A stretch of DNA of 47,464 bases, taken from a virus. Its lineage: Duplodnaviria; Caudoviricetes. Positions within the stretch are counted from its first letter, which is position 1, and every line of letters starts with the position of its first letter. Below, piece by piece: positions 1-47,093 of this stretch. The stretch spans positions 1 to 47,464 of IMG/VR virus record IMGVR_UViG_3300044538_000006. One strand, written 5' to 3'. The notes below the pieces were generated by a model. That model made no database searches. It was not told where the DNA came from and saw only the letters and a program-made list of their open reading frames with translations. A program made the position numbers and the translations under genes.

Positions 1-105
1 ATAAGGAAAATAAAAACGACCACCTCTTATAAAAAGAAGTGATCGTTATAGGTATGTAATGTCAGGAATTCCTACACTAAGTTGTTATCTTTGTGCTAGT
101 TCCTT
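1..105. repeat. Terminal direct repeat, copy 1 (circular assembly overlap)
   Basis: nt 1-105 are identical to nt 47360-47464. Confidence 0.95.
12..47 (-). terminator. Intrinsic terminator-like hairpin
   Basis: Minus strand AACGATCACTTCTT...AAGAGGTGGTCGTT (14 bp, 2 G-U) followed by TTTATTTT. Confidence 0.7.
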
Positions 106-384
106 CGCTCCTTGCCAGATGCGCTCACCTTGGATCCCCGTTCATCAGAACTTTTCGGCTGCTCTACCCGTTATCTTACATATCGGACGGCTAAGCACTT
201 TCTTCCACCTATCCAGTGGGCTTACCTTGAGTACGTTCCCGAACTTCAATCCGTGAGTTTCTGGAAAATCTGGTTGTGAATTGCTGTTTCGCTGTTTTGA
301 GAACCTTTTTGTTTCCCGCCTTGGAAAGTTTCAGCCCCCGGTGAAACTTTTACCTCCAGTCTTATCCCTCTTCTTCATCAACCA

Positions 385-403
385 TATTCATTTTTCAAGG
401 TGC
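385..403 (-). promoter_or_regulatory. rRNA-type boxA antitermination-like motif
   Basis: Minus strand GCACCTTGAAAAATGAATA just downstream of the predicted TSS; resembles boxA of rrn leaders/spacers. Confidence 0.55.
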
Positions 404-422
404 GTTATCTAATTACTTCATA

Positions 423-454
423 ATTCTACCCTACAATCCTCCAGATGTACATAG
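423..454 (-). promoter_or_regulatory. Phage early-type promoter, copy 1
   Basis: Minus strand CTATGTACA-N17-TAGAAT; the motif recurs at ~4400, ~4520 and ~30050. Confidence 0.65.
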
Positions 455-506
455 CGGGCCAATGCTAGTTCAAGTAAGTTTCGAAATCCTGATACAATTA
501 GTACAA

Positions 507-698
507 TTATGTATTCCGGGCTACTTTCTTGACTTCCTTTGATTTATTCTGCGCAGCCAGTTTGTTACGAACCGCATAATAGCGGTTAGTGACCTGACGA
601 TAAGGGATGCCGAACTTTCTAGCAATCTCCGCCATACTGATTTTTCGCTCGAGGAGGAGCGGGTCGATCTTATTCCACGGGTGTTTTCTGTTTGCCAT
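507..698 (-). CDS. Small helix-turn-helix DNA-binding protein
   Basis: 63 aa; SMAEIARKFGIPYRQVTNRY fits an HTH pattern; basic C-terminus. Confidence 0.65.
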   Translation of the reverse strand: MANRKHPWNKIDPLLLERKISMAEIARKFGIPYRQVTNRYYAVRNKLAAQNKSKEVKKVARNT

Positions 699-4369: not shown

Positions 4370-4389
4370 TTCAATCTCCTTTTGTTCTT

Positions 4390-4435: not shown

Positions 4436-4514
4436 CCAATGTAAGTTCAAGTAAGTTTCAAGAAGTTCATTACATTTGTAATGAGTTGGAAAGAATGTAA
4501 GTTCTTGTAAGTTT

Positions 4515-30091: not shown

Positions 30092-30193
30092 TCACTTTGA
30101 CTTCTTGCTTCGGACGTACATGAGGATCAATCCAAAGGATCCTAACAGTAAGGAACCTGCGATCACGAGCACTAAAATATTTTCAAGGTCCAT
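30092..30193 (-). CDS. 33-aa single-TM peptide (absent from ORF track)
   Basis: MDLENILVLVIAGSLLLGSFGLILMYVRSKKSK; purine-rich RBS. Confidence 0.5.
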   Translation of the reverse strand: MDLENILVLVIAGSLLLGSFGLILMYVRSKKSK

Positions 30194-30476
30194 CTTCTTC
30201 CTCAATTTCTTCATCCTCGTCTATCCTGCGAGTGATGACTGGCTCGACACCTTCGATGAAGGTGACCTTCGACATGTGAATTGGTTTGTTGATGCATGGT
30301 CCATGACCAGTTATTCCAGCCTTGGCCAACTCATCAGCCGGTAAACATACCAAATAGTTACTCACGTGATCGCTACCAAATACTATTCCTTGAATTTTCA
30401 CTTTGTTGTATTCAAGCTCAACGAGTCTTTCGTGAGGTAGAACCCTTAAGTTTCCAATACGTTTTCTTTTTGCCAT
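30183..30476 (-). CDS. Hypothetical protein
   Basis: 97 aa, GAGGA RBS, acidic tail. Confidence 0.65.
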   Translation of the reverse strand: MAKRKRIGNLRVLPHERLVELEYNKVKIQGIVFGSDHVSNYLVCLPADELAKAGITGHGPCINKPIHMSKVTFIEGVEPVITRRIDEDEEIEEEDGP

Positions 30477-31320
30477 TCTGTTCCTCTTTCAGTTTGATTG
30501 CATTTAGTAGGGCCTTATTTCCAGTTTTGGTTGCGTAGCCGATAACATCTCTCGTTGCAAGCTTACTTGCAGCGAATGCCATCTCTCCGTATTTCATTTC
30601 ATCAGCCTCTCCACCAGGGAGTGATACCTCTGAGTTGTTATGCAACTTCATGAATGAGTAAGCACCTAAATATCCTGCAAGGTCATTATCGAATAAAATT
30701 CGTACTGAATGTCCTTCAAGTATCTTGGCTGCTGGTGGGATTGCACTTGCACCCATCGTGCACACCGCTTTGAACCCATACTTGTCTGCTCGTAGAACGC
30801 CAAATACTCCTTCAACAAGCAGAAGATGTTCATACTTTAGATTTGCCATTGGCCAAACTGGTGTCCTACTTCCATGAAGAATATACTTGGGCTCACCAGT
30901 ATATTTTCGTTCTTGGACACCAACAGCAAGCCCGCTTTTGTCAAACACTGGGAAGAGGACGCCATCCTTGTGAGCCATGATCTTGAATTTCTTGACCTGC
31001 TCAACAGTTACGCCTCTTACTCCCAGGTAGGTATTCCTCGTGGCCAACTTTGAGTAGAGGAGTTGCCTCCACTCTCGATCGTCTTCATCCTGATGCGGGA
31101 TCAGAGCGAGATCAATCTTGAGAAGAGTACCACCAAACTCTTTTGCCAGATGGTAAGCGTTGGTTGAGTAACCACAGCCGAAGCAATGGAACAAACCGTT
31201 TGAAAGATTGAACCTTGCGCTCGGCTCGTGGTCAAGATGGAAGGGGCAACGAAGTTTTGCCTCTACACCAGTAACCTTGATGATCTGAAGTCCTAGAGCG
31301 TTTGGGTCCCATACTTTCAT
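30418..31320 (-). CDS. dnaG: DNA primase (CHC2 zinc finger + TOPRIM)
   Basis: CPFH.D..PS...FHCFGCG, YL..RG, KY, LVEGVFG, FDNDLAG. Confidence 0.9.
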   Translation of the reverse strand: MKVWDPNALGLQIIKVTGVEAKLRCPFHLDHEPSARFNLSNGLFHCFGCGYSTNAYHLAKEFGGTLLKIDLALIPHQDEDDREWRQLLYSKLATRNTYLGVRGVTVEQVKKFKIMAHKDGVLFPVFDKSGLAVGVQERKYTGEPKYILHGSRTPVWPMANLKYEHLLLVEGVFGVLRADKYGFKAVCTMGASAIPPAAKILEGHSVRILFDNDLAGYLGAYSFMKLHNNSEVSLPGGEADEMKYGEMAFAASKLATRDVIGYATKTGNKALLNAIKLKEEQNGKKKTYWKLKGSTSRKTR

Positions 31321-31490
31321 TTCTTCTCCTCAGGCTTGTGGAGCCATGGCTCATATGGTTCCCATTTGCCGTTTTGTTTTGCAAACATCGTACCCTCAAG
31401 AATTCCTTTCGTGAGGATGTAGATATAAATGTACTTTGCAATCCTGTAGCCAATCAGGATGCCCATTAGAAAGATTATTATGTACCACAT
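31317..31490 (-). CDS. 57-aa single-TM protein (paralog of 43383-43550; absent from ORF track)
   Basis: AGGAGG RBS; MWYIIIFLMGILIGYRIAK...; ATGA coupling to primase. Confidence 0.7.
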   Translation of the reverse strand: MWYIIIFLMGILIGYRIAKYIYIYILTKGILEGTMFAKQNGKWEPYEPWLHKPEEKK

Positions 31491-31499
31491 TGTTCCTCC

Positions 31500-31748
31500 T
31501 TAGTGCGAACAGTCTGGGCACTCATCATAGTCTTGGCCATGCTCACACAATTCAATCGAATAATCGGGTGAGTCGCAAATTGTTCTTTCAAACCTTTTGC
31601 ATAATTCTGCAACGTAACCATATCCCGTCATGTCGCTAACATATTTGCAGCCCATCATTAGTTTTAGAAGATCTCGATCACTCTTATCTTTCAATCTGCT
31701 AGTATCAATGTTCTCGTAATCGAAATGGATCCATTTCTTTGACATCAT
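31500..31748 (-). CDS. Small Cys-rich hypothetical protein
   Basis: CEHG...CPDC; coupled to the helicase stop. Confidence 0.65.
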   Translation of the reverse strand: MMSKKWIHFDYENIDTSRLKDKSDRDLLKLMMGCKYVSDMTGYGYVAELCKRFERTICDSPDYSIELCEHGQDYDECPDCSH

Positions 31749-32902
31749 CGTACCTCTTCAACTTTCATATTGTCAAAGTCAAGGTCGAACATCGCCGACA
31801 TATTTGGGCCATACCTGTTCTTTGTCATTGAAGCCGTTATCCGATTTGGTCGAACAGTGTCAACCTCCAACATGATGATTTGATCTGCATCCTGACCTAG
31901 GGCATCAGCAAACGCCAAATCCTCAGGAGTAAATCCTTCTGTTTTTCCAACTCGTTTGATTTGAGTTGTGGCCAGCATTGGGAGTTTAGATGTAAGTGCC
32001 ATTTGCTTGAGTTGACCGCTGACTTCGGTGATGCGTTCCCATCTAGCTGACGGTGGGCTCATCAGGTCAGGAGCAAGCTGATAAACACCATCGACGATGA
32101 TCGCGTCCACCATGAAGAACTTTGCTGCCATTGCAATGTGCTCTGGAGTCTTTAGCCCTCGAGGGGCATAGATTTCACCCTTGCTCCGTTTTGCAGTCAT
32201 CTGTGCAATCTTCAAACGAGAAGCAATGTCTGCTCCGAACTCTCCACGTAGAGCCAATGGATTGAATGCCGCTACCATGCCATCGATACGTGAGAAGATT
32301 TCCATTGCAAGCATTTCTTGCGACACGAATAATACTCTCATTCCCTTGAGCATCCACTCACGAGCTTGCCACTGCGTTGTTAGTGATTTACCAGTTCCAA
32401 GCCGAGCGGCAATCAAGCAGTAATCGCCAGCGTGGAGACTACCCATTGCTCTGTTTAGGATGCCAGAGAAGAAGTCAACTGACTTGGTATGAAGACGAGC
32501 TTTGTAGCGACTCCTGTCGTAGGAGGTGTAGGCCACTTCATCGTCTTCTGCCTGGGATACGGTACGCATTACAGCATAAACGTCCGTATCGATAATCTTT
32601 CCCTCGAGTCTTGTTTTGTCGATCACCTTCCCCATTTCAGAAATAAAGAACGAGAGTCTTTTCCTTTCAAGTGCCTGATCTGCGATGTCGTCAACAATGA
32701 AGCGACCTTCCAACTCGATTGGAATAAAATCCTCAAACTCTTCCCCAAGGCGTTCAACATCAGGAGGCTCACCATATTTTGCCGCATATTCTGCGATCCA
32801 CGAGATGAGTTCAAGCTCGAAAGGTTCCATGAGCCGCTGTGGAAACTGAAGAAGGCGACTCACGTCTTTTGACTTGAGTGAGGCAACGATAAGTTTATTC
32901 AC
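31745..32902 (-). CDS. dnaB: Replicative helicase (DnaB/SF4)
   Basis: ARLGTGKS, VSQEM, IIVDGVYQL, LGQDAD, KNRYG. Confidence 0.92.
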   Translation of the reverse strand: MNKLIVASLKSKDVSRLLQFPQRLMEPFELELISWIAEYAAKYGEPPDVERLGEEFEDFIPIELEGRFIVDDIADQALERKRLSFFISEMGKVIDKTRLEGKIIDTDVYAVMRTVSQAEDDEVAYTSYDRSRYKARLHTKSVDFFSGILNRAMGSLHAGDYCLIAARLGTGKSLTTQWQAREWMLKGMRVLFVSQEMLAMEIFSRIDGMVAAFNPLALRGEFGADIASRLKIAQMTAKRSKGEIYAPRGLKTPEHIAMAAKFFMVDAIIVDGVYQLAPDLMSPPSARWERITEVSGQLKQMALTSKLPMLATTQIKRVGKTEGFTPEDLAFADALGQDADQIIMLEVDTVRPNRITASMTKNRYGPNMSAMFDLDFDNMKVEEVR

Positions 32903-32938
32903 ATATTCCTCCAGTATCTATTTGATGCAGAGGGTCTC

Positions 32939-32998
32939 CCAGAGACACGACTATGGTCTGATGTAGTTCCATCATACTCAATAGTTGAGTGTCTCTGG
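32939..32998. repeat. Dispersed ~60-bp intergenic element, copy C
   Basis: CCAGAGACAC..GATGTAGTTCCATCAT..GTGTCTCTGG with perfect 10-bp inverted ends. Confidence 0.6.
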
Positions 32999-33012
32999 GC
33001 GTCCTCTGGGTG

Positions 33013-34014
33013 TCAACGGACTATACTCGGGTTTGAGTTGATGAATGCTAAGTCACCAGTGAGCTGGCAGCTAAGAGTACATGCCTGGCAAGTCCTCAAT
33101 TCCTTTCGCCTCGAAACACTATCAACCCAGATCTGATCGAATGGTTTTTCATAGAGGTTGCCAAGGACTGCATCTTTTTCGTCCAACCCCTGGCAGACCC
33201 ACACATCCCCATTCGCATTGATCGTGGAGTAGATGGATGTGCTATAGCAGGGGATCGCGCTACCTTTCTTTTTGTTTACGGCGGCCATGATGTATTGAGC
33301 TCCACTACGAAGTGACTTCATCATTGTAGCGTATTCCAATTTGTTGGACATTGTAATCAATTCGGAATAGAGAGTGGTGAGTACCTCCGCTTTCTGATCG
33401 TAACTTGCAATGCCTAATAGTCCATCATCTGATGCGATGTTGAACCGTGGCTGAGCTCCATACTCAAGGCACACATCCAAGAACCACCTGATGTTTTCGT
33501 ACGCTTGAACATATGTCCTTGCATTCCATGGGCCCAAAGTTATCTGAAGCGTTGTGCTCCCCTTGTAGGGGTCTTTGATCTGTGAGAGAAGAGAATGGAT
33601 GCTGTCGAGATTACCCGCCACTCCGCGTGATCGATCGTGTTGTGGCCCATCCAATGAAATGGTTAGTTGATCAGCAAATTGAAGGAGCGGGATTGCAAGT
33701 TCAGGCTCAACTGCATTTGTCAATAGAGTTACCTTATGGGTGTTCTCACTGAGGAACTCCATGATTTGATATGCATCGGGGTGAAGTGTGAACTCTCCAC
33801 CTTGGACAACGACTCCACACCAGCTAAGAGCTTTCGATTGAGTCCAGAACTCTTTCACTTTCTCAAATGGCATATGCACTCTTGGCATCTTTGAATTTGA
33901 TGTCCTAAACGTGCAGTAGGAACAGTTTGAATTGCAGTGAGAGGTGGCATAAAAGTAAATTGTTCGTGGCCAATCGAGTAGCACAGACTCTTGATATGAC
34001 GGTCTACTTTTCAT
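33013..34014 (-). CDS. Radical SAM enzyme with SPASM/twitch-like C-terminus
   Basis: CNSNCSYC, QGGEFTLHPD, LTN, ISLDG..HDRSRG, C..INANGDVWVC...LGN...CQAC...C. Confidence 0.9.
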   Translation of the reverse strand: MKSRPSYQESVLLDWPRTIYFYATSHCNSNCSYCTFRTSNSKMPRVHMPFEKVKEFWTQSKALSWCGVVVQGGEFTLHPDAYQIMEFLSENTHKVTLLTNAVEPELAIPLLQFADQLTISLDGPQHDRSRGVAGNLDSIHSLLSQIKDPYKGSTTLQITLGPWNARTYVQAYENIRWFLDVCLEYGAQPRFNIASDDGLLGIASYDQKAEVLTTLYSELITMSNKLEYATMMKSLRSGAQYIMAAVNKKKGSAIPCYSTSIYSTINANGDVWVCQGLDEKDAVLGNLYEKPFDQIWVDSVSRRKELRTCQACTLSCQLTGDLAFINSNPSIVR

Positions 34015-34427
34015 TTGGCTAAAATCCTTGCGAGAGAAGCATGTACCTGAGATTTGATCTGGTCATCGATAGATTTCTTAATGTCTTCATCAACGACACC
34101 CTCAACGATGGCCTCAATCTCTTTCATGATAACTGCGTCTCTTTCTAAAACCACAGCCTTAACTTCGGCTCGAACGATCTTGTCGAGCTTCTTGCGGTCA
34201 TCACCATATGAGCCTTCATTGACAACAAGCCTCACATGGTTCTTAACCTCTGTCGTTGCGATCTGTTCCAACTTCGCAGCATCTAGCTTTTTGCCCTCGG
34301 CGGTCAACACCTCCATGATGATCGTCTTTATTTCCTCCCTGACGATCTTCACGACTTGACCTTTGATGATGCGACGAATTTCGCCACGCAACGCTTCATC
34401 TTCCTGAACGTTGATTTTGAGTCTCAT
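34011..34427 (-). CDS. Helical/coiled-coil hypothetical protein
   Basis: 138 aa, coupled to dnaE and the radical SAM gene. Confidence 0.7.
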   Translation of the reverse strand: MRLKINVQEDEALRGEIRRIIKGQVVKIVREEIKTIIMEVLTAEGKKLDAAKLEQIATTEVKNHVRLVVNEGSYGDDRKKLDKIVRAEVKAVVLERDAVIMKEIEAIVEGVVDEDIKKSIDDQIKSQVHASLARILAK

Positions 34428-37252
34428 AACTTCCTTAACGTTGTTGCCTTGCCTGAGTTTGCCTTCACCTTCGCAGCTACAAAATCTCCAACACCCAGAT
34501 TATCAGTCCTCAATCCTCTTACCCAGAACAATCCATTTGGGATGAGGTAAAAGACTTCATATGGGCCAAACGCTGAAGATTTCTTTTTCACTGCTCCGAT
34601 AATTCCAGCAACCCATCCGTCTTCCGTGGCTTTCTCAATGTTTGCAATTTCAGTCTTGGTTGGTAGGACAAAGCCAAGTAAACGGAGTTGAGCTTCGCGT
34701 TCAGGATTTGGGGATTTACGAATTTCAGCGAGCATCTCATTTGACTTACCTGAGATACCAAGTTTCTTAACATCGCCACTCAATCCCTTGAATGCCCCAA
34801 TCCCAAGTAGTGATGCGCGAGCTTGTCCTCGAAGAGCATTCTTTGGAACGCGAGCCATAAAATCATCAATCGATTTGAACTTTCCTTTCTTCAATTCATC
34901 TCTGATAGACCGAACATTGGTGACATACTTGATCACATTTGCTGGAATGATAATAGCATCTTCATCCACAACAAAGATGTCATCATCACCAATTTGATTG
35001 ATATGCGGCATCTTTACTTTGATCCCGCGTTTGATGACCTCAAAGATATACTGCGTCAGGTTGTCGCGATCACTACTCATCATCGCTGCGTAGAACTGAA
35101 CTGGATAATAGAACTTCCAGAAAGCCATTTGCCATGCGATTTGTGCGTACGCTGTTGCGTGGGCCTTATTGAATGAGTAGCGAGAGTGGGTTTCGATTTC
35201 ACTCCAAATCTTCTCAGCAGTTTCTTTCTTCACACTCTGCTTTAGAGCTCCCTCAACGAATTTCTTCTTTACGTCAACAAGCTGCTTTTGCCATTCAGGA
35301 TCGTTCATCTTGCCACCAGCTTTCACGATCAAGCGGCGAACGTTATCAGCTTCTGAAAGAGAGCCATCTGTCATACGAGCATAAAGGGCCATTACCTGTT
35401 CTTGATAGACAATTGCTCCATATGTGGGAGCGAGAATGTCTTCGATCAGTTTTGGAACCTTTCGCGGATTATACCGCCACTCAACGAACTTATCTGCAGT
35501 ACCGGCATCAAGTGCTCCTGGCCTGTACAACGCATTGAGCGCTACTAAATCTTCAAACTTGGTTGGAGCCATTTTCATTGTGAGGTTGCGAATGCCCCAA
35601 CTACCTGAGAACTGGAATACACCACTGAGATCTCCAGTCCTAAAGAGTTCGAAAGCCGGATCATTCTCAGGGTGTTCCTTTGAGCGTTTGACTTCCTTGG
35701 GGTTGTTTCGTTCAAGAAGCTGCAAGATCGTAAGAGCCTCTAACCCAAGTAAGTCATACTTCACAATCCCAGCTTTTGACATCTCATTGAGCTTGCCCTC
35801 AGTCCATGCTGCGACTAAATGTCCTGATGCTCGTTCAATTGGAACTTGCCGGTCCGTAATCACAACGCCAGCAGCGTGACGGCCTCTGTGTCTAATTTGG
35901 CCGATGATAGTCCCATAAGCTGCACTAAACTCTGGATTTTCATCCAAGAATTCAAGAACTTCGTGCGACATAGGATCTGCGTCAGCAAGTTTTTCCTCCA
36001 CGTTGCGAGGAACTTTCAATGCTTTAGACAGATCGTGTACAGCTGTTTTATGGGAGTAGCGAATAACCGTTCCAATGGGGTGCCCTTTCCACTGCTTCGC
36101 GACATATTCGATCACTGCATCCCTATGAAGAGAGTCGATATCAATGTCAACGTCAGGCATACCCTTACGAGAAGGATTTAGGAACCTTTCAAATGGGAGG
36201 TCATATTGAATAGGGTCAATATCGGTAATCCCAAGCGTATAGAGGATAAGAGACCCAGCTCCACTGCCACGGCCTGGCCCAATCATTGCTCCAAGACCGC
36301 GTGCTGCTCTAATAATATCGTGGAGAATTACGAAGTAAGATGAGTAGTCCATCTTCTGGATAATCTCCAGTTCGTAATCCAATCTTTTCCTATACGTGGC
36401 ATTCTTCAAATCAACTCTTCCCATTGTGATGAGGCCGCGGAGTCGTGTATCAGCATTAGAGATATGGGGCAATGTCGGTTCTGCATCGAACTCTGTTGCC
36501 TTGATTTTTTCTGCGATCATGGCTGTAGTTCCAATCGCGGCGTCAAATGCTTCACGAGAGATTTCACTCTTTGCTCTCTTCCAGATTTGCTCTGAATTTT
36601 TCAGCCAGAGTTCTTTTGAGTTGTATGAGTAACCAGCTCTCATCTTCGTAACTAAGCCATGAACATCACCATCTTCCTGAAGTGGAAAGTGAGCATCATT
36701 CGTGATCACCAACGGGATGTTACCCTTTTCTGCGAGCTTGATTGGCCTTGACCATGTGTCAGTGTCTGCTACGAACATCATCTCCATGAAGAAGCGGTTG
36801 CCAAACGCCCTCTTGAACTTGGACATCAGAGCAACTGACTCAGCATATGGAAGCTGGTTGAATGGCGATGCTACACAACCACTCAAACAAATGATATCCT
36901 TGCAGTCATTCAGCAAATCATCGATCGAAAATGCCGGTGATTTGCCATGCGATGCATGACCAATATTATTGAGACGAATGAGATTATCCAATCCTTTCTT
37001 TCCATTTCCAAGAAGAGTAAGGTGGCCAACCTTGCCGTCAAAAGCAATGTAAGCCTCTACTCCTACGATGGGTTTGAGACCAACTGCTTTCGCTTCAAGC
37101 GAGAAGGATACTGCATTCGAAAGCGATCCATGATCTGTAACCGCCAATGCACTAAATCCATAATCCTTCGCTGCTTTTACGAGTTGTGAGACTTCTCTTA
37201 ACCCATCTTTTGATGCATCAGAATGAACGTGAAGATGGGCAAATCCATTCAT
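34424..37252 (-). CDS. dnaE: C-family DNA polymerase (DNA Pol III alpha-like)
   Basis: PHP motifs HLHVHS/TDHG/TNDAH, GPGRGSGAGS, FERFLNP.R..MPDVDID, HAAGVVI, KYDLLGL, YSFNKAHA; AGGAGG RBS at 37252. Confidence 0.97.
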   Translation of the reverse strand: MNGFAHLHVHSDASKDGLREVSQLVKAAKDYGFSALAVTDHGSLSNAVSFSLEAKAVGLKPIVGVEAYIAFDGKVGHLTLLGNGKKGLDNLIRLNNIGHASHGKSPAFSIDDLLNDCKDIICLSGCVASPFNQLPYAESVALMSKFKRAFGNRFFMEMMFVADTDTWSRPIKLAEKGNIPLVITNDAHFPLQEDGDVHGLVTKMRAGYSYNSKELWLKNSEQIWKRAKSEISREAFDAAIGTTAMIAEKIKATEFDAEPTLPHISNADTRLRGLITMGRVDLKNATYRKRLDYELEIIQKMDYSSYFVILHDIIRAARGLGAMIGPGRGSGAGSLILYTLGITDIDPIQYDLPFERFLNPSRKGMPDVDIDIDSLHRDAVIEYVAKQWKGHPIGTVIRYSHKTAVHDLSKALKVPRNVEEKLADADPMSHEVLEFLDENPEFSAAYGTIIGQIRHRGRHAAGVVITDRQVPIERASGHLVAAWTEGKLNEMSKAGIVKYDLLGLEALTILQLLERNNPKEVKRSKEHPENDPAFELFRTGDLSGVFQFSGSWGIRNLTMKMAPTKFEDLVALNALYRPGALDAGTADKFVEWRYNPRKVPKLIEDILAPTYGAIVYQEQVMALYARMTDGSLSEADNVRRLIVKAGGKMNDPEWQKQLVDVKKKFVEGALKQSVKKETAEKIWSEIETHSRYSFNKAHATAYAQIAWQMAFWKFYYPVQFYAAMMSSDRDNLTQYIFEVIKRGIKVKMPHINQIGDDDIFVVDEDAIIIPANVIKYVTNVRSIRDELKKGKFKSIDDFMARVPKNALRGQARASLLGIGAFKGLSGDVKKLGISGKSNEMLAEIRKSPNPEREAQLRLLGFVLPTKTEIANIEKATEDGWVAGIIGAVKKKSSAFGPYEVFYLIPNGLFWVRGLRTDNLGVGDFVAAKVKANSGKATTLRKL

Positions 37253-38181
37253 GCGTGTTCCTCCTTTTTGATCCAATAATTTAGGACCTTCTGAAGAGTG
37301 TCGTCAGCAACCATTTCATAGAGAGCTTTTGCACCATGCTTATGACGGTGGAATGTTGCGGCCGCCGTAAAATAAAGATTGGTCTCATACTCCGTTTTGA
37401 AAGTGTGCTTCAAACATTCTTCAGGTGTGAACTTCGAGATGTTGCAGATTGCTCGATACACCTCATGTGGTTCAAACGTGCTTGGCATTTTATTCATAAC
37501 ATGCGGCCAAACAGGTTCTACTTCGATAACTCCAATCCGCTCAAGGTCTGTTTCATAGAGGTGGAATGAAGATGCATAGTGAACGTATGCTCCCATGGGG
37601 ATGCCAGTTTTGACTGAGATGTATTCCTGTAGGAAGGTGAATGTAAATACATCATTGGTCAACCCGAGGATTACGTCATTACTGCGCATCATTACTTTCA
37701 TATTCAGTCGTCCGTCTCGAACGAGGAAATGAAAGTTGAGAGTACATGGGGTATTGAGGCCACCACCGCCGAGCAGATCGATTGCACCCATGTAAATGGA
37801 AATTACTGCTCGACGAGTATGAGGATCCTTCTTCAGCATCTCAATCGTCAAATCAAGTTGCTGAGATGTGTGGATGCGGTTGCCGTATGACCCATCAATT
37901 GTTCTCCCGTTCGTTGAGAAGCGAGAAAAGTTTGGAACGAACTGAACAAGTGGCGCAAGTAAGTTGTCACCAACAAGAAATGAAAGTGAGTCAGTGATTG
38001 CGAAACCCAAGTTCATTTTGCGCCATCGCTCAGTAGCAATTCGATCGAGTGGATTTTCAATCTTGAAAAGAAAATCTTCAATCTCGACCGTATCCCCTCT
38101 TACAGAAGGAACCTTCAGCCCGTAGTCTGAAGTAAATTCAACGAGCCGTGAAAGCTCACGTGGAGAAAACTCTAACATCAT
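37249..38181 (-). CDS. Thymidylate-synthase-fold dCMP-modifying enzyme (T4 gp42 dCMP hydroxymethylase-like)
   Basis: DPHTRRAV, catalytic PCT, MRSNDVILGLTND (Asp at the dUMP/dCMP specificity position, cf. gp42 RSNDVVFGFRND), SFHLY. Confidence 0.85.
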   Translation of the reverse strand: MMLEFSPRELSRLVEFTSDYGLKVPSVRGDTVEIEDFLFKIENPLDRIATERWRKMNLGFAITDSLSFLVGDNLLAPLVQFVPNFSRFSTNGRTIDGSYGNRIHTSQQLDLTIEMLKKDPHTRRAVISIYMGAIDLLGGGGLNTPCTLNFHFLVRDGRLNMKVMMRSNDVILGLTNDVFTFTFLQEYISVKTGIPMGAYVHYASSFHLYETDLERIGVIEVEPVWPHVMNKMPSTFEPHEVYRAICNISKFTPEECLKHTFKTEYETNLYFTAAATFHRHKHGAKALYEMVADDTLQKVLNYWIKKEEHA

Positions 38182-39161
38182 TTTGCCATCCTTTCCAGTT
38201 GTTCGAGCCACGGTTCTGGCCGCATATACTTATCAACCAACTCCCTGAATGCGTCAATCAGGATTTCGTCTTCAATTGGATAGATGTTTCTAAACTTATC
38301 GCGAAGCTGATAGCCATCACGCACTCGAAGCTTATCGAGGATATTCGCGTACTCACGTGGAAGATTGAATTCAGCAGGAATGAATGGAAGGCAACCTGCT
38401 GTGGCTGCTTCAGCCCATCTGATTGTAACGAAGCCCCTTGAACCATATTCAGGTTTGTGAAGAAGAATTGTTGCCTTCGTTTGCTTCATAGTTTCAATCA
38501 CATTAGCCTGATCCAATCTTCCTTTGAAGTTTACATTGGGCATCATACCCATTGTCGTACGAGGATTGCGGCCCGGTCCATCTTCAGTCCAGTTACCATA
38601 AACTTCAGTTGGGTATTTTTCAGAAAATGGAACCAGGAACCTGATCGCTTGTTCGAGGCGCTCATAGTTGTTTCCAATATAAACAAGTTTCGCATCCTGG
38701 AATTGAAAGGTTACCTTGTCAAACTTGTAAGGATTGGGGTAGTGAAGGACGACCTCACCTGGATCAGGATAAAAAGAAGGAGACGCGATCACTCCTCCGT
38801 TTGTAGTAATCCAGTCTCTCGCTTCAAAGGTCATCTTCAGATCCTGGTCATGAATGAGGAATGGGATCTTCTTACGAATACACCACTCAATCAGTTTGTT
38901 CTGCCGATCATAGCAGTTGTTGCGATCCTCATATTGTGGCAGGTTGGGTAGCTCCCATCGCCAGCAGAATACAGCAACGTCAACATCAAACGTTGGTATC
39001 CAATCGACAGACTCTCGAGGAACGTGAGACTTGAACCAAAACGTCTTATGACCAGCTTTCCCAAATTGATCAAAAAGAAATTTAGTCCAGGCACCACCAC
39101 CGCCAGATGTTTTGCCATCACCATCTAGGCCAGGCTCCCATGTATGCCAAAGGATGTTCAT
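38178..39161 (-). CDS. DNA glycosyltransferase, T4 beta-glucosyltransferase-like (GT-B)
   Basis: LVYIGNNYER, EVYGN, FKGRL..NV...Y...FVTIRWAEA...FIPAEF parallel T4 BGT VIYGGSFR, EFFGN, FTGKI..MV, FITLRVWE...LIDEEF. Confidence 0.8.
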   Translation of the reverse strand: MNILWHTWEPGLDGDGKTSGGGGAWTKFLFDQFGKAGHKTFWFKSHVPRESVDWIPTFDVDVAVFCWRWELPNLPQYEDRNNCYDRQNKLIEWCIRKKIPFLIHDQDLKMTFEARDWITTNGGVIASPSFYPDPGEVVLHYPNPYKFDKVTFQFQDAKLVYIGNNYERLEQAIRFLVPFSEKYPTEVYGNWTEDGPGRNPRTTMGMMPNVNFKGRLDQANVIETMKQTKATILLHKPEYGSRGFVTIRWAEAATAGCLPFIPAEFNLPREYANILDKLRVRDGYQLRDKFRNIYPIEDEILIDAFRELVDKYMRPEPWLEQLERMAK

Positions 39162-39760
39162 GCTACTACCTCCTCTAACTGTTCAACGTTTACGATAGGC
39201 GGCAAACTAGGGATCTGATCCTTCAAAAGCTTGCCACCATGTTGATGCTTCATGATGTGGACAACGAGTCTGTCGATATCTGTTTGAGTATCGCCAGACC
39301 AGATGTGCGTGTCGCATTTGGAAAAAGTTGTTACGGCTTTTGTCCACGCGTCATCAAGCTCGGAAGTGACCGGCCACTCCGGAGTGCGGTGGTCCGGATC
39401 ACGATATTTGTAACGCTCCTTCCGAATTTCCTTGGAAGTCTGAAGCACATAGACCTGGGCTTTACAGTGCTTGAGCATTACGTCGATCATATGGGTTGTG
39501 TTCAAGAGAACTTGCTCATCAACCTTTTTGTCCAACGTTCGCATAACAAACTCAGTCAAGTGAAAGCGATCGAGAACGCAGATGGAGCGGCTGTCAATCA
39601 ATGCGAGGTAGTGCTTCGCAAGAAATTCAGCCATGAAAACTGGAGGATGAGCCGTTCGCTGAAACTTGATTACGTATGCTCGACCTCCAAAGGCATCCTG
39701 AATTCGCTTCACTGCTGTAGTTTTGCCGCTATTACGCGGGCCTTCTAAAATATACAGCAT
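39158..39760 (-). CDS. Deoxynucleoside monophosphate kinase (thymidylate-kinase-like)
   Basis: ILEGPRNSGKTT P-loop, VLDRFHLTE, R..RY..R lid. Confidence 0.85.
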   Translation of the reverse strand: MLYILEGPRNSGKTTAVKRIQDAFGGRAYVIKFQRTAHPPVFMAEFLAKHYLALIDSRSICVLDRFHLTEFVMRTLDKKVDEQVLLNTTHMIDVMLKHCKAQVYVLQTSKEIRKERYKYRDPDHRTPEWPVTSELDDAWTKAVTTFSKCDTHIWSGDTQTDIDRLVVHIMKHQHGGKLLKDQIPSLPPIVNVEQLEEVVA

Positions 39761-41044
39761 TCAAAATCTCCGTTTCTCCTCATAGTAGTAGTTTGCCCAG
39801 AAGTAATCTTCGTTATCGCCGGCTCCCATTGAAGCGAGATTTGCAGCGCCAACATCCTTCATGATGTGGTCGAGATTGTAGTAGCCATGGGCTCCCCATC
39901 TTCCAATGAGGTAGACATTCTTTTCCATAAACTGTTTTCGAGCATAAGCAACCTTTGCTCTGTGGCCAACAACAGGGATCGGGTATCCCTTTGAGTAGAT
40001 GGACATGACCTCCGTAACGTCCTCAGGTGAGATGAGATCGAAATTAGCAGCTCTAAGAAGGGCCACAATTGAAGCTCCCATTGCTTTGTTGCTTGATGTC
40101 TCAATGGTCGGTTGACTCGTAATTGCCTTTTGTGGCATCTCAATGAGAAGTGAGTCACTTCCTTTCGGAGCCATCCCATCGTGGTACCTACTCAGCAAAG
40201 TGATGCGATGAACTGGAGACTGATTGTCAGTCCCATTGTACCACCAATGGAAGTCTTCCTTGATGCGACGCTTGAGACCAATTCCGACTGTGAGAATGTT
40301 GTTGTGTGGTAGCTTCACCTTCGACTCGAGAACCTTCCCAGTCGTATCAAATAGGTTCTCATATTCAATCCATCCCTTGTAAACTGCAGGTGCTTCGCAG
40401 TTGACGTAAACCCGTTTTGCTTCATAGTCAAAGATGGTTGCCCATGTGTTCGTAAATACTCGAACGTCGAATGACGCGCATCTTTCAAGGACAGCCTCTA
40501 AGATGTCTTCGCCTTTCGCATAGTAAAAAGAACCGTTTGGACCCCAATTCCTTGACTTGTTCTGCATCAGAGGAACCCTACCTACGATCCAATCGATGTC
40601 CATCTTATCAGGTTCTGTTGACCAGACTCTTTTGTTGAATGGACGAAGAATTGACTCATAGAACTCATGACCAAATTCCTTGATGAGAAGCCTTTCTAAA
40701 TTCTTTGAAACGCCATCTTTCTCCGACGTAAAGATTGGGATGCCAACGTTGTCATCGTATTGGATTGGATACCCATATTTGTGCTTGTAGTCGAAGTACG
40801 CCTTCCGTTCACCGAAAAATTTTGCATCAGCGTTTTTGAGAAGGAATGAAAGCTCAGCGTCCTTCGTGGTGTACACGTGACCACCAACGTCAAAGGTGTA
40901 ATCTCCTGATGGTGATTTGAACCCTCTCAGTAGTCCGCCAAGGTATGGTGATGCCTCGATAATGAGGGCATCATCAGCGTAGTAGCCAGCTGTCAAGCCG
41001 GCAAACCCAGCCCCAATGATTAGATTTTTTACTTTCATTACCAT
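39761..41044 (-). CDS. FAD-dependent UDP-galactopyranose mutase-like enzyme
   Basis: IIGAGFAGL, FDVGGH, RPFNKRVW, WIVGRV, NWGPNGSF, HR, GYPIP, GRWG..YYNLDH; matches motifs I recall from eukaryote-type UGM. Confidence 0.8.
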   Translation of the reverse strand: MVMKVKNLIIGAGFAGLTAGYYADDALIIEASPYLGGLLRGFKSPSGDYTFDVGGHVYTTKDAELSFLLKNADAKFFGERKAYFDYKHKYGYPIQYDDNVGIPIFTSEKDGVSKNLERLLIKEFGHEFYESILRPFNKRVWSTEPDKMDIDWIVGRVPLMQNKSRNWGPNGSFYYAKGEDILEAVLERCASFDVRVFTNTWATIFDYEAKRVYVNCEAPAVYKGWIEYENLFDTTGKVLESKVKLPHNNILTVGIGLKRRIKEDFHWWYNGTDNQSPVHRITLLSRYHDGMAPKGSDSLLIEMPQKAITSQPTIETSSNKAMGASIVALLRAANFDLISPEDVTEVMSIYSKGYPIPVVGHRAKVAYARKQFMEKNVYLIGRWGAHGYYNLDHIMKDVGAANLASMGAGDNEDYFWANYYYEEKRRF

Positions 41045-41664
41045 GTTACACCTGCCTCGATTACGGTCTTCTCAAACAGCTCTTTTGCTTTTTCCATTTC
41101 TGCGTGTGATCGCATTGCGGCATAATGAGGGATCGTCACCACGTGGATAAGCCTCTTATCTTTGTTGAGCTTAACCATCTTCCATGCGTCAAGCTCTGGC
41201 TTTTTCACGAGTTCACAGAACTGCCTCATGGCCACTTTTCCCATTAGTACTACAATGTTGGGTAAAGGTAACTGAGCCGTCCAACCCATACAGTTTGCCA
41301 CCATGTCCGGTTGAGGCGAAAGGTTGTCCTTCGTACGACAGCGAACTGCGTTCGTATACATGAACTTTCCATTCGTCAACCAACCTTCGCCGAAAATCTT
41401 GCTCATTTGAGCATGACCATGAGATGTAACAAAGTCCACATCATACACGGTCTTGATGGCCTCTGCCGTTGCGCCTTCCTCAACAAGTGCGGAAAGCTGA
41501 AGTCGCCACTTATCATCACTCCCAATCTCTCCTGGATTTTGTGCAATGACAAGAACTGTTGGATTTGAACTGCCAGCAAAAAGGAATGGGGGCAGCTGGT
41601 AAGCCGCCCCTTCACAGAGTCTGCATCCATTGCAACCAAGAATGTAGGGAGATAAATCCATCAT
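41038..41664 (-). CDS. Uracil-DNA glycosylase superfamily protein (family-4-like Fe-S scaffold)
   Basis: CNGCRLC, VLVIAQNPG, YTNAVRCR, NC, IVVLMGKVA, TIPHYAA. Confidence 0.85.
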   Translation of the reverse strand: MMDLSPYILGCNGCRLCEGAAYQLPPFLFAGSSNPTVLVIAQNPGEIGSDDKWRLQLSALVEEGATAEAIKTVYDVDFVTSHGHAQMSKIFGEGWLTNGKFMYTNAVRCRTKDNLSPQPDMVANCMGWTAQLPLPNIVVLMGKVAMRQFCELVKKPELDAWKMVKLNKDKRLIHVVTIPHYAAMRSHAEMEKAKELFEKTVIEAGVTW

Positions 41665-42122
41665 GCCTCCTTTATTTCGCGCCGAATGAGTTCCAATTCC
41701 TCTTCGGTGAAATGAGACGCAAGCACGGCTCCAAGCATGGGCTCGATTACGTCTCCATTCTTGATCCTGACTGAGTAGATACGAATGAGGTTCTTACGAT
41801 ACTTGTGATCGTAGAGCTTAAGCAGATCCTCTCCAGTGAGGCCCAGAAAGATTGCCAGCTCCAAGATGAAGAACACTACATCGATGAGTTCCTCTTTCAT
41901 CTCAGTCGCAGTATTGAATTCCTTCGTCTTCCAGACGCGATTGGCCTTATTGATCAGCTCCAAGATTTCGGCAGCCTCAGTTGAAACCCCAATAGCTGCT
42001 CCAATTTCATCCCGTGAAGGGACGTCTTCGTTCAGGAGAGTGCCCCCATCAGGATCAATGTTGAGCACTCTCATGAACATTTTTTGACGAGCTAACAGGA
42101 GGTCGAGCTCATTCCCAATCAT
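41661..42122 (-). CDS. All-alpha NTP pyrophosphatase (dCTPase/dUTPase, MazG-like)
   Basis: TEAAEILE...WK...KEELIDVVFF...Y..K...N. Confidence 0.85.
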   Translation of the reverse strand: MIGNELDLLLARQKMFMRVLNIDPDGGTLLNEDVPSRDEIGAAIGVSTEAAEILELINKANRVWKTKEFNTATEMKEELIDVVFFILELAIFLGLTGEDLLKLYDHKYRKNLIRIYSVRIKNGDVIEPMLGAVLASHFTEEELELIRREIKEA

Positions 42123-42786
42123 CGTCTTTCTTGCCTTTCTTTGCAGGCTTGGCTTCCGGCTTGCCCTTCTTTACGGCAGCTTTCTTGGGGGCCTCATCTT
42201 CCTCTTCCTCGGTCTCATCATCCTCGTCTTTGGCTTTCTTCGAAGCTGATTTTCCGCCGAGCAGGCCAGCCGCGCGAAGGTCGCTTTCGATCGTATCGCG
42301 ATCCTTCACATCAATGTTGGACTCCACAAACTTTGTGGCTTCCTTTTCGGTAACTTCCACTTCGGTGTTCTTCCCAGTGTTGATCACCTGGTACTTGGTC
42401 GCCAGCCCGGTTCCAGTCCGCTTGACGCGGAGCTTCAGGCCAACGATCTCGCCGAGTTCCTCTTCCAGCGTGACCAGCTGTCGTTCGACGGAAATACCGA
42501 AGGCAAACATTTTCATGTCGCCCTCACTGTCAAGGACGGGCAGAAACGCGCGATAGGCCGCCTTGTCGCCAAGCTCGCAGCCTGGGCAACCTTCGTCTGT
42601 GCCATCAAGGCAGGCGAATGTAACTGCAGGGTTTACGGTCCAGAAAGCATGGAGGTCGATCGACACGATCTGCTCGGTCGGAAGAATGGGTACGATTGTG
42701 ACGGGCTCGTCCTCTTTGACCGCGATGAACGTTTTGTTCCCACGACCACTCGACGGACCCTTACGAATAACGGACTTTGCTTTCAT
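42109..42786 (-). CDS. ssb: Single-stranded DNA-binding protein (T4 gp32-like)
   Basis: H...C...CPGC zinc ligands, VKRTGTG..TKYQV, acidic tail ending DDDWE. Confidence 0.75.
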   Translation of the reverse strand: MKAKSVIRKGPSSGRGNKTFIAVKEDEPVTIVPILPTEQIVSIDLHAFWTVNPAVTFACLDGTDEGCPGCELGDKAAYRAFLPVLDSEGDMKMFAFGISVERQLVTLEEELGEIVGLKLRVKRTGTGLATKYQVINTGKNTEVEVTEKEATKFVESNIDVKDRDTIESDLRAAGLLGGKSASKKAKDEDDETEEEEDEAPKKAAVKKGKPEAKPAKKGKKDDDWE

Positions 42787-42804
42787 TTCAACTCCTTAAG
42801 AATA

Positions 42805-43335
42805 TTTTGCCGCCTTTATGTAGCCTATCCGACTACAAGGGTTGGCGGCAAATCCCAGAAACATGATGTACGGTCATTTAGGCAAGTTCTAGTAGAATTC
42901 AGTTTCAATGGTTTCGTATCTAGCGTTTCCCTGTGCGTTCGCCGTCAAGCTTAGCCTCGGGGACTGTTATCGTAAGCGTCATACCTCCCGCAGCGAGGTA
43001 AGGACTGATCACCATTCAGTGGCCATATTTCGGGTTATGCCCGTGCCTATAGCTTACGAAAAGCGGTGGAGCACCTCCTTATAAAGAAGAGTTTTGTTGG
43101 GTCCCAAAACCAGCCGCGTCAAGATCGCGTTGTTGATGACGAAGGCAATAGTTATGTCTTGCACCGGAAACTGCAAAGGAGGACTGACTTCGTAAGCCAG
43201 CCACCCGTTGCGTCTTCGATTTAGGACACCCTCGCCTACGTTGCTGTATTGTCCCAACAGTCTTGAAAAGAGAGCCACGTGAGAGTCGAACTCACATACC
43301 CGGTTGGCTCTGTTACATATTCTATTGTAGATGTA
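42805..43335 (-). ncRNA. Candidate ~530-nt structured RNA / long ssb leader
   Basis: TATAAT at 43342-43347; many hairpins, one loop-loop complementarity and a 5' tRNA-like minihelix; no credible ORF. Confidence 0.5.
43271..43311 (-). other. tRNA-like minihelix (acceptor-like stem + T-arm; no anticodon)
   Basis: Minus strand AGAGCCA-ACCGGGTAT-GTGAG-TTCGACT-CTCAC-G-TGGCTCT. Confidence 0.6.
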
Positions 43336-43382
43336 TATCCTATTATACTCGACCAGAGTGTGCCTCTGAGCCTCTCTGAGTG

Positions 43383-43550
43383 TCACTGTTTATGATCGAT
43401 ACGGGGGTTGTTAGGTATCCATTGACCTTTGTCATTGAATATGAATAACCTACCCTCATTCATCGCCTTTGTCATTCCCCAGATTGCTGACCACTTTGCT
43501 ATTTGGTAGCCTATGATTATTCCTGCGAGAACTGAAAGTAATACGGTCAT
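43383..43550 (-). CDS. 55-aa single-TM protein (paralog of 31317-31490; absent from ORF track)
   Basis: AAGGAG RBS; MTVLLSVLAGIIIGYQIAKW...; ATGA coupling. Confidence 0.7.
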   Translation of the reverse strand: MTVLLSVLAGIIIGYQIAKWSAIWGMTKAMNEGRLFIFNDKGQWIPNNPRIDHKQ

Positions 43551-43714
43551 TTTCGTTTCTCCTTTATTTGCATTTGATCATAAACTTTATTTTTGTAAGC
43601 CTCATTGAATTCGTCTTCAATTTTCTTGAATTCTTCAAAAGAAATTTTCTTTACGAATTTGTCAATCTTGGCTTGTGAATACTCTTTAGAAATTTGCTCA
43701 AATGTTTTTGTCAT
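43547..43714 (-). CDS. Small hypothetical protein (55 aa)
   Basis: GGAGG RBS before ATG 43714 (MTKTFEQ...). Confidence 0.7.
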   Translation of the reverse strand: MTKTFEQISKEYSQAKIDKFVKKISFEEFKKIEDEFNEAYKNKVYDQMQIKEKRK

Positions 43715-43786
43715 AAATCCTCCAACAATGAAGGCTCTCTCCTGCAGCAGCCGTTCAGCGAAACGTTCTGCAGGAGAGAGTCGAAT

Positions 43787-43822
43787 AAAAGTGCCTACTA
43801 CAAAAGGAGGAAGAGTAGGCAC
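43787..43822 (-). terminator. Intrinsic terminator-like hairpin
   Basis: Minus strand GTGCCTACT...AGTAGGCAC-TTTT downstream of the vWA gene. Confidence 0.65.
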
Positions 43823-43837
43823 GCATCGAAATGATGC

Positions 43838-45556
43838 CTACTTTCCCAAAATCAATTTTTGTAGACCAGCTTCCAACTTCGCTGGAGTTGTAGCGTCTAC
43901 GTTGAATTTCTCTCCGTAGATTTTGTTGTTGTCTTGGATGACGGAAGGAACCAATGAGAGAGAAATTACCGTGATGCCCTGCTTGCGAGCTTCCTTAATC
44001 ATATCGATCGTATGTTGTTCAGGCTTTGCGTAGTGGACTCCAATAGGGCGACCATCTGAGAGGACCAACAGAATTTTTGCTGCGCCACGGGTAAATTTCT
44101 TGACTACGTGATTGATAGCGTGGCCATCATAATTTTCTGTGAGGTCAATTTTGCGGGCTGCTTCGAAACGATCTTCAAAGCTGTTGCTCGTTTTGCCACT
44201 CATACGATATGAGTAGATGTGGAAGACAGTGGGAACGTCTTCGCTTTCTTCATTCACGTGAGACGTATGACCATAAACTGCGTGAGCAATCCCACTGTCC
44301 TTCATCGCTTGACTCATTTTCTTTGTGGTCTCCATAACGTTCCCAATGTGATAGTGCATTGAGCCACTCATGTCGGTCAAGAGAATATATTCTGGCTGCT
44401 TCTTTGAGATGCTCGCAACCGATTCGCCTCGACGTGAGAACATCTTCCCGTCTGTAGCAATCCGCGATAAGCGTGTCTTCACCAAAACTGAACCAGATTT
44501 GCGGGGTTCAGCAAGTGTGGGGACTACCTGGCGGCTAACCTTCAGTTTCTTGATGAAGCCAAAGTCGTCCTTCTTTACTTCGTAGTGCCAGCTGGGGTAG
44601 CTGTCTGCATATTCATTGTTGAGTACGTCAATTTCCTCGAGAGCGGGCATTCTACCAGATCCAGCTTCCTGCCGTTTGATTTCCATGGGCATGATATCCC
44701 CACGTTCGAAAGCTTCCTTCGCCTCTTGCATTGCCTCTTCCATGTCAGCGTCACTCATTGAAGAATTGCTCGACTGACTCTTTCCAGCCTGAGTGTCTTC
44801 AAAGATTTGATAAAGCTTGTGAGCTTGGCCAACCGCGTCAGCCATTGGTGAGATTGCTGCTTCGAGGATGTCAATTGCTACATCAAGTTTTGCAGCCTTG
44901 AGCATTTGATTGATCGCATTGCGTGAGCTCGCGTTCTTGTAAAAAGGTAAAGTCTCCAACACGATACTCTTCAGATCAGTCCCATATTTCTTTTGAGCAT
45001 CCGCCAAGATTTGAGTGAAGCGGCTGGTTGTGAAGAGCAATTCGTTTTTGCCAACGATGTAGGTATTCAATTCATCGTGACGAGTGGCCTTTGCCTCATT
45101 CTTCAGATCCTCAGTCAATTGGAGCATGTTAGTGAAAAGGTTGGGATTGCTGTGTTCGTTGATTGTGTTCTGCATTGCGGGAGTCCACAAATACTGGGAG
45201 TGAGCTACGTGAAGAGCCTCGTGAATTGAAGAACCATTCACCAGCATGAGGGCTACTGAAGTTGCCTCTTTGTCAGAGAGCTGACGACCAATGAACTTTT
45301 CTAATGACTCGCGATGGCAATACCAAGCTGGAATTTTGATGTCGGAATGTCGGTTCGTTCCAGCCTGAGCTCCAGACTCAAATGAGACACTCATCGACCG
45401 AATTGCGTTAGCCGATTTTTCCAAGTCAAGAGTTACGTTTGCGAGCTGTTCGGTCCCACGAATGAGTGAGACGAAGCGTGGTGACTCGATCGAAGGAAGG
45501 TCAATGAAGCCGTATTGTTCCTTGATTACCTTTTGGGCCGATTTTACTGGATCCAT
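43838..45556 (-). CDS. vWA (MIDAS) domain protein with N-terminal HExxH (CobT-like partner of MoxR ATPase)
   Basis: IHEALH..ED; LLTDMSGSM, ENYDG, LVLSDGRP. Confidence 0.85.
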   Translation of the reverse strand: MDPVKSAQKVIKEQYGFIDLPSIESPRFVSLIRGTEQLANVTLDLEKSANAIRSMSVSFESGAQAGTNRHSDIKIPAWYCHRESLEKFIGRQLSDKEATSVALMLVNGSSIHEALHVAHSQYLWTPAMQNTINEHSNPNLFTNMLQLTEDLKNEAKATRHDELNTYIVGKNELLFTTSRFTQILADAQKKYGTDLKSIVLETLPFYKNASSRNAINQMLKAAKLDVAIDILEAAISPMADAVGQAHKLYQIFEDTQAGKSQSSNSSMSDADMEEAMQEAKEAFERGDIMPMEIKRQEAGSGRMPALEEIDVLNNEYADSYPSWHYEVKKDDFGFIKKLKVSRQVVPTLAEPRKSGSVLVKTRLSRIATDGKMFSRRGESVASISKKQPEYILLTDMSGSMHYHIGNVMETTKKMSQAMKDSGIAHAVYGHTSHVNEESEDVPTVFHIYSYRMSGKTSNSFEDRFEAARKIDLTENYDGHAINHVVKKFTRGAAKILLVLSDGRPIGVHYAKPEQHTIDMIKEARKQGITVISLSLVPSVIQDNNKIYGEKFNVDATTPAKLEAGLQKLILGK

Positions 45557-46767: not shown

Positions 46768-46916
46768 TTTAAAATCTCCTTTTGTTTGAACTGAATGAAT
46801 TGAATTCGATACCAACAAGTAGGTTCGCTGCCTACTTATTAGTAGCGAATGCTCGAGTGGTCATGACCTCGCCAAGTTTACCTGGAACTGAGAGTCGCCC
46901 TCGAGCATTCATCCTG

Positions 46917-47093
46917 CTACTTGATGAAGTCGATATAAAGTTGAACTGCTTCTTCACGGGTATTCGCTGCAATCCCGTCAATCATCCACTGGAGTTTTCC
47001 TTCGATGATTGTCTTCGCAACTTCACCAAGTTCCTGTCCGTTATAAAAGAAGCGGAAGGAAAAGTTTGTCGCTCCTCGTTTGAATGTGATCAT
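46917..47093 (-). CDS. 58-aa hypothetical protein (absent from ORF track)
   Basis: AAAGGAG RBS; MITFKRGATNFSFRFF...; ATGA coupling. Confidence 0.65.
   Translation of the reverse strand: MITFKRGATNFSFRFFYNGQELGEVAKTIIEGKLQWMIDGIAANTREEAVQLYIDFIK

Follow-up and report, generated by a model that had tools for sequence, protein, structure and literature searches.

A conserved phage RNA with an rRNA-type boxA and covarying helices at the head of an early operon

What is made from the long stretch without sizeable reading frames that precedes the early genes of this Caudoviricetes phage: an RNA that works on its own, or a leader that governs transcription of the genes behind it? The window, that is, the whole stretch of DNA analysed here (47,464 nucleotides), is a complete 47.4-kb circular phage genome in which bases 1-105 recur at 47360-47464. 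PHROG matches identify genes for terminase, portal, capsid, tail, endolysin, DNA polymerase, helicase, primase and DNA modification. The closest terminases from cultured phages are 29-35% identical, and ARAGORN found no tRNA or tmRNA gene in the genome. On the minus strand, the RNA locus is flanked on one side by a small HTH-like gene and on the other, past the circle junction, by two small ORFs and an AAA-vWA gene pair at the head of a co-oriented block that extends to ~30183 (Table 1). Apart from weak HTH matches, the flanking small ORFs belong to no PHROG or Pfam family. Comparison of three variants only supports a conserved, covarying, non-coding structured phage RNA with an rRNA-type boxA.

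Table 1. Features of the RNA locus and of its surroundings in the window (P1, P2 and P3, helices of the predicted three-way junction; L001, the related locus in a second phage)
Feature	Position	Strand	Remarks
Small HTH-like gene	507..698	-	Directly upstream of RNA promoter; 44% vs L001
Operator- or UP-like repeat (putative role), common to divergent promoters at 4429/4521	461..482	-	
Phage-family promoter TGTACA-N17-TAGAAT	423..451	-	Pattern match; same promoter at same place in L001
P1 5' strand (boxA core), predicted partner 114-106	396..404	-	P 0.98-1.00 in window
Extended boxA-type motif GCACCTTGAAAAATGAATA, 19 nt; predicted NusB-S10 site	385..403	-	Pattern; rRNA-leader matches
5' domain closed by P2 (389-374 with 280-266)	266..389	-	2 double changes and 3 broken among 14 pairs
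Hairpin with conserved CYGGGGGC loop (341-334)	327..348	-	5/7 pairs changed on both sides in L001
3' domain, long irregular rod P3 (264-235 with 151-115) with variable distal arms	115..264	-	P 0.93-0.99
Near-invariant block with 3' strands of P3 and P1	103..132	-	29/30 nt identical to L001
Tail motif ACAUACC before a hairpin	51..57	-	Conserved in all three variants
Intrinsic terminator, 14-bp stem (47-15) and U tract	7..47	-	L001 counterpart 15-bp
Read-through hairpin, 29 bp, including U tract and part of terminator 3' arm	47285..47381	-	Inverted repeat
Long intergenic stem before AAA gene, putative RNase III-type site	46847..46910	-	L001 stem at same place
Early/replication block, co-oriented: AAA, vWA, SSB, DNA-modification genes, DNA polymerase, helicase, primase	30183..47266	-	

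An Atlas hint of Chloroflexota as host (score 0.85) serves as a lead only. The gene at 909-1715 encodes a membrane protein of 268 aa whose C-terminal region is HTH-like; the protein belongs to no library family and has 225 relatives, mostly on short contigs. Its profile was not found in the 401 Chloroflexota genomes searched, and neither the genomic context nor the host became clearer through a search with the AAA representative, a cluster look-up or an HTH search, which gave one relative. Elsewhere in the genome, a 26-nt inverted repeat (81%; 11907-11972) lies where the ORF after the head-maturation genes begins.

The locus opens with a copy of the phage's own promoter, as the preliminary description of this DNA had stated. 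The pattern TGTACA-N16/17-TANAAT has four matches in the genome against 0.02 expected, and none of 100 shuffles reaches four. A weight matrix built from 19 family promoter sites in three phages, including the very sites that it scored highest, ranks the RNA promoter at the top both in the window genome and in that of the second RNA-bearing phage (G001). The start site is predicted near 416, which gives a predicted length of ~405 nt. The divergent promoter pair that has the upstream repeat in common with the RNA promoter forms a 47-nt inverted repeat (4389-4561). The RNA had been described as free of ORFs. This is correct for sense-strand frames above 34 aa, but a 34-aa frame with a TTG start (249-145) and a 65-aa antisense frame (59-256) are present. 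No SD-like site precedes any sense frame of at least 8 aa in the window's RNA, and the small ORFs are not common to the window phage and the L001 phage. The purine richness noted earlier is also evident, at 62% of the sense strand compared with 53% in the early coding block.

The motif GCACCTTGAAAAATGAATA, on which the earlier view of a boxA-led RNA was based, follows the -10 box by 19 nt and the predicted start by 13 nt in the window, and occupies the same place in L001. Among 201 genomes of Chloroflexota, the one phylum sampled, eight contain a degenerate version of this 19-mer, with 11 matches in all, and its reversed control has none; three of the 11 sit ~30-90 nt before 16S/23S rRNA. The pattern marks rRNA leaders, and an rRNA-type boxA is supported for the phage RNA. 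At two Chloroflexota loci (L215 and L217), the pattern stands ahead of what we take, by eye, to be a CRISPR array and a cas2-like gene. According to sections of PMC13753749, boxA is bound by NusB-S10 ahead of rRNA and CRISPR arrays, and passages of bioRxiv 091223 give aid to rRNA folding as the main role of the Nus complex. The extended pattern occurs in an estimated ~280 viral stretches, where inspection by eye places it mostly before mRNAs or tRNA clusters; boxA alone therefore does not imply a stand-alone RNA. These stretches suggest wide phage use of rRNA-type Nus loading. In many unrelated phages, among them those of loci L047, L050, L074, L090, L099, L136 and L163, the extended pattern comes right after a promoter and before apparent tRNA clusters or mRNAs. 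Genome G199 carries two similar copies of another boxA-led element of ~480 nt (L223 1386-920 and L219 445-1, both minus strand), which matches neither Rfam nor R1, the model of the RNA described here, and whose ends presumably resemble those of IS200/IS605.

From position 416, the window sequence folds as a three-way junction of helices P1, P2 and P3, mostly with P 0.92-1.00. The evidence for this fold is comparative. Against L001, 11 of the 46 scored pairs have changed on both sides, compared with 0-1 in slid controls and with 2 of 500 shuffles that score as high; 95.7% of cells pair, and four pairs are broken in L001. The distal arms lie outside these 46 pairs because they do not align, and since the structure came from folding the window itself, the comparison with slid controls is tilted in its favour. 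The hairpin with the GGGGG loop supplies five of the 11 double changes, which bears out the earlier placing of hairpins at 325-350. P3 has four double changes against L001 and three in a third variant, which was recovered from runs as described below. Among the 15 substitutions listed for this run variant, seven fall at unpaired positions. Six make three compensatory pairs (257/124, 238/148 and 237/149), all in helices with P>=0.95, another replaces U-G by U-A, and the last disrupts a helix of P=0.61 (assigned by hand). The null probability of at least three doubles is 1.2e-4; five further differences near 270-288 lie outside these 15 substitutions. Covariation among homologs, the lack of which the preliminary description had named as a refutation, was found in both comparisons, with 14 compensatory double changes in total. 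P1 differs in that six of its seven pairs are invariant in L001 and one is broken, with no covariation.

Folding energy is modest by itself, and the structural case rests on covariation. The z-score of the window RNA is -2.1 with the terminator and -1.41 without it; that of the L001 core is +1.0, and the L001 sequence by itself does better in a different fold (-78.0 kcal/mol, against -65.3 kcal/mol for the consensus). The near-invariant block can also give up P1/P3a for a local hairpin, which costs 6 kcal/mol in the window and 2 kcal/mol in L001 and would allow a switch. The earlier closing helix of 5'-GGTTGATGAAGAAGA with 3'-TTTTCCTTATCAATT has to be given up: its 5' strand pairs with 280-271 (P 0.92-0.99, two double changes), and most of its proposed 3' strand would come after transcription has ended, on the other side of the circle junction, and there pairs with a downstream arm. 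A pairing between boxA and the first CAAGG (132-126) was also considered but dropped, since position 129 is altered in the run variant. No partner was found for the tail motif.

Relatives of the RNA are few. A search with the AAA protein gave two loci. In L001, the membrane protein, HTH gene, promoter, boxA, RNA, terminator and AAA gene follow in the same order as in the window; in L002 (genome G002), the promoter family is present and the RNA is not detectable. The RNA is single-copy and syntenic in the two phages that carry it and interrupts no gene. It is 69% identical over 234 nt, plus the near-invariant block (97%), similar to the coding genes at 63-76%, and the alignment indels are 5, 3, 4 and 5 nt long. 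In L001, an additional 3' domain, a folded insert of ~200 nt before the terminator (z -2.9), lengthens the RNA to ~590 nt; such an insert suits a modular free RNA. A search of runs returned 18 with a DNA match, of which eight were examined; it listed no RNA run, which speaks neither for nor against expression. Seven of these, from seven studies, gave a 151-486-nt contig of depth 3-4.3 that matches part or all of 51-288 at ~91-97%, with flanks unlike the phage at both ends of this interval; the eighth (X4) has no piece on the RNA. The listed differences are the same wherever shown and were therefore counted as one variant, for which shared carry-over between laboratories is possible; some runs have short patches on capsid-region genes, so that the variant is probably from a related phage.

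Wider searches added no further member. No match to the RNA was obtained by blastn against cultured phages and plasmids. Scans of viral sequences with two 16-mers (11 and 70 loci), with a 19-mer (one locus) and with promoter plus boxA (32 loci) each had one real hit, always the phage of L001, and all 13 loci of an 18-mer scan of GTDB were due to chance. Among 25 metagenome loci found through the neighbouring membrane protein, the RNA occurs in L018 only, which belongs to the same phage as L001. Model R1 detected no new member in sets of 99 loci (besides the window) and 69 loci, in the eight Chloroflexota boxA loci or in G002, and none in 151 Chloroflexota genomes, a search run without a positive control. 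In Rfam, the check proposed in the preliminary description, there was nothing at gathering score and two weak, terminator-driven matches at E<=10; the mobile and catalytic RNA families considered below had no match at E<=10 in either phage. Neither phage genome contains an antisense target longer than 15 nt, so regulation of phage mRNA by base pairing is unlikely.

The RNA ends in the 14-bp terminator that had been recognized before. Beyond it, a 29-bp hairpin would form in a read-through transcript; L001 has an inverted repeat of different sequence at the same place. Mismatches in this hairpin are G-U on the sense strand in three of three cases in the window and in two of three in L001, where the third is U-U. 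All five transition-type mismatches of the two phages are thus G-U on the sense strand, which would happen in ~3% of cases if the strand were random; this bias suggests that read-through RNA forms the hairpin. No family promoter occurs from the terminator to 30072 in the window (17 kb of co-oriented genes) or in the following 25-kb block of G001, and downstream genes may therefore depend on the transcript of the RNA. G002, which has no RNA, carries family promoters directly before its AAA and vWA genes. A weak sigma70-like site (9/12) follows the terminator in the window at 47356-47329, with no counterpart found in L001.

We give an even chance to a reading in which the locus is a phage gene for a discrete RNA of ~405 nt, Nus-loaded and acting in trans as a scaffold or decoy, with leak-through feeding the operon. 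Putative transcription, Nus binding, processing and function of the RNA would be connected as follows. The phage promoter would fire, and NusB-S10 would bind boxA 13 nt downstream of the start, in the manner known from pre-rRNA; Nus would then shield the untranslated chain from Rho and help it to fold. Once the near-invariant 3' block emerges, it would pair with boxA as P1 and stack on P3, and this pairing would close the three-way junction and release Nus. Polymerase would mostly stop at the 14-15-bp terminator. A minority would read through and form the 29-bp hairpin over the U tract, which would likely be cut by an RNase III-type activity, and this transcript would supply early/replication mRNA. 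A protein partner may bind at the conserved junction, at the GGGGG loop and at the tail motif, and the variable distal arms may be dispensable. The earlier proposal of a dedicated stable structured RNA therefore agrees with the conserved, covarying and non-coding character of the locus but gives half the picture, because the promoter is also the last of its family before a 17-kb block and the hairpin over the U tract points to read-through. Against a discrete trans-acting RNA stand this last family promoter, the different fold preferred by L001, the lack of covariation and the one broken pair in P1, the number of sequences (two full-length and one partial), the absence of a tRNA island, which many ROOL/GOLLD loci have, and the failure to find a protein partner.

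The same position before the block, found in both phages, argues for a leader that acts in cis, the main rival reading, which follows closely although we hold it less likely than not. Here, boxA and the fold would modify RNA polymerase, as in put, EAR or conAn2, or would switch between a boxA-free and a boxA-paired state, and would so set read-through into 17-25 kb. The G-U bias of the read-through hairpin, the terminator-like sites inside the block and the sizes of conAn2 RNA antiterminators (260-600 bp in excerpts of PMC8191782) agree with a leader, as does the larger number of family promoters in the relative without the RNA (11 in G002 vs 5 and 3 in the RNA-bearing phages). The local hairpin of the invariant block, which leaves P1 unformed at the costs given above, would provide a second state. 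However, shuffled sequence contains almost as many terminator-like sites as the block (24 vs 16.8 +/- 4.1; 5 vs 5.1), P1 would already mask boxA when polymerase arrives at the terminator, and the weak sigma70-like site could start downstream mRNA separately, although no counterpart was found in L001. The terminator stems also fall in a length class that resists antitermination, as shown for conAn only: in B. subtilis, a 15-bp stem and versions shorter by 1-2 bp resisted conAn antitermination according to sections of PMC10325885. The discrete RNA and the leader would be combined in a self-timing switch, an unlikely arrangement by our estimate, in which the last conserved strand either captures boxA, with Nus off, termination and free RNA, or folds locally, with Nus on and read-through. 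If true, one promoter would split its output between an abundant structured RNA and a 17-25-kb replication operon without a phage antiterminator protein.

Two other explanations depart further from the data. A mobile or catalytic RNA, degenerate or domesticated and no longer accompanied by its protein gene (a group I/II intron core, an IS200/IS605 omega-RNA, or a relic like RNase P, SRP or tmRNA), would suit a length of 300-600 nt and a multibranch fold, and the unlike flanks of the run variant at both ends of 51-288 suggest modular exchange. We nevertheless consider it very improbable. Such families have no Rfam match at E<=10 in either phage, and group I/II intron, RNase P, SRP, tmRNA, T-box and HEARO gave no match in Rfam or ARAGORN; short core motifs of these catalytic families are absent from both phages, the single-copy, syntenic RNA interrupts no gene, and no reverse transcriptase, IscB or TnpB is found among the 69 ORFs scanned. 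It is hardly credible that the locus has no functional fold at all and is conserved DNA, such as operators or an origin, or a translated leader, with covariation by chance. Modest folding z-scores and few sequences would allow this, but 14 compensatory double changes in two comparisons, small ORFs that differ between the two phages and the lengths of the indels argue against it.

Known systems share parts of this anatomy. ROOL and GOLLD are likewise phage-encoded, long, ORF-free, multibranched RNAs with covarying helices and an unknown job (passages of PMC12286853). The phage RNAs (~405 and ~590 nt) are shorter, as had been remarked of the window RNA, than the 659 nt of a ROOL example and the often >800 nt of GOLLD in the same passages. 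The window RNA has no match to the covariance models of ROOL, GOLLD or OLE at gathering score or at E<=10. ROOL and GOLLD often adjoin tRNA islands, whereas the window genome has no tRNA genes; its RNA stands at the head of an early operon, with no pseudoknot or kissing loop shown. Homo-oligomeric assembly from RNA alone is a further trait of ROOL, GOLLD and OLE. With rRNA leaders, the phage RNA has in common the 19-nt pattern and a 5' end predicted to close a large domain by long-range pairing (sections of PMC10250234, PMC13753749 and bioRxiv 091223), but the leader-trailer helix of rRNA exceeds 17 bp, whereas P1 has 6-8 bp and no covariation, and the phage transcript carries no rRNA. For host 23S, one precursor was evaluated, and there the trailer pairs with sequence that follows the boxA core; in the phage RNA, the boxA core itself is predicted to pair.

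Closer parallels in position are offered by antiterminator RNAs. HK022 put is a structured RNA right after an early promoter and before a long operon (excerpts of PMC9378689), but it has ~70 nt and two stems, whereas the phage RNA is 4-8 times longer, with a core of ~300 nt and a three-way junction. The conAn2 RNA of 260-600 nt, which raises terminator read-through in cis, also heads a long operon (excerpts of PMC8191782), comparable to ~405/590 nt before 17-/25-kb blocks in the phages. The window RNA differs from put and conAn2 in its boxA and its own long-stem terminator, and the window, unlike pLS20 with its conAn2, is a phage rather than a conjugative element and has no similarity to plasmid records. 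The conAn1 gene lies between the promoter and the conAn2 RNA, whereas in the window promoter and RNA are not separated by a protein gene, and the upstream gene is HTH-like and precedes the promoter. Lambda nut/N resembles the window in having boxA near the start of the early transcript, a terminator before the early genes and a long stem after it (passages of PMC10250234). In contrast to lambda, no short boxB hairpin lies beside boxA, the sequence after boxA enters the long-range helix P2, and a conserved fold of 300 nt is present instead. PHROG and Pfam matches pointed to no N-like gene among the flanking small ORFs. The long stem of the lambda early transcript is an RNase III site, which provides a parallel to the stems proposed here.

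The RNA is real and apparently uncatalogued, with no matching Rfam family. Full-text literature yielded no description of it, in a text search that cannot match sequence and that leaves some supplements outside, and six supplementary files of PMC10690425 contain no match. The IMG/VR screen published there required three distinct regions and reported motifs of up to 151 nt, according to sections of that paper, and is therefore unlikely to hold the RNA whole; other supplements of PMC10690425 and of PMC5737381 could hold a piece of it. Large structured RNAs of phages form a small group without known functions, to which the window RNA adds an uncatalogued fold. With its anatomy of promoter, boxA, terminator, read-through stem and operon, one can test whether it is a free RNA or a leader that controls transcription. 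If P1 does capture boxA, this would reveal a way in which an RNA confines Nus antitermination to itself.

Other elements of the genome deserve mention. A second conserved non-coding element with several hairpins lies upstream of the SSB-like gene (42967-43080, minus strand; G001 28494-28603) and is 81% identical over 114 nt; it has no Rfam match at gathering score and is possibly an SSB regulatory leader. At 33013-42122 (minus), genes for thymidylate-synthase-like, glycosyltransferase, kinase, FAD/NAD oxidoreductase, UDG-like, MazG-like and radical-SAM proteins form a cluster that is likely a DNA hypermodification pathway. The motif GCGTGTCTCTG(G), often after CTATCATC, occurs at 5615, 27751 and 32949 in the window, at 12522 and 23625 in G001 and at 3766, 36942 and 53408 in G002. 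The region 27650-27960 around one copy has no Rfam match, and on the other strand the motif resembles a second promoter or operator class.
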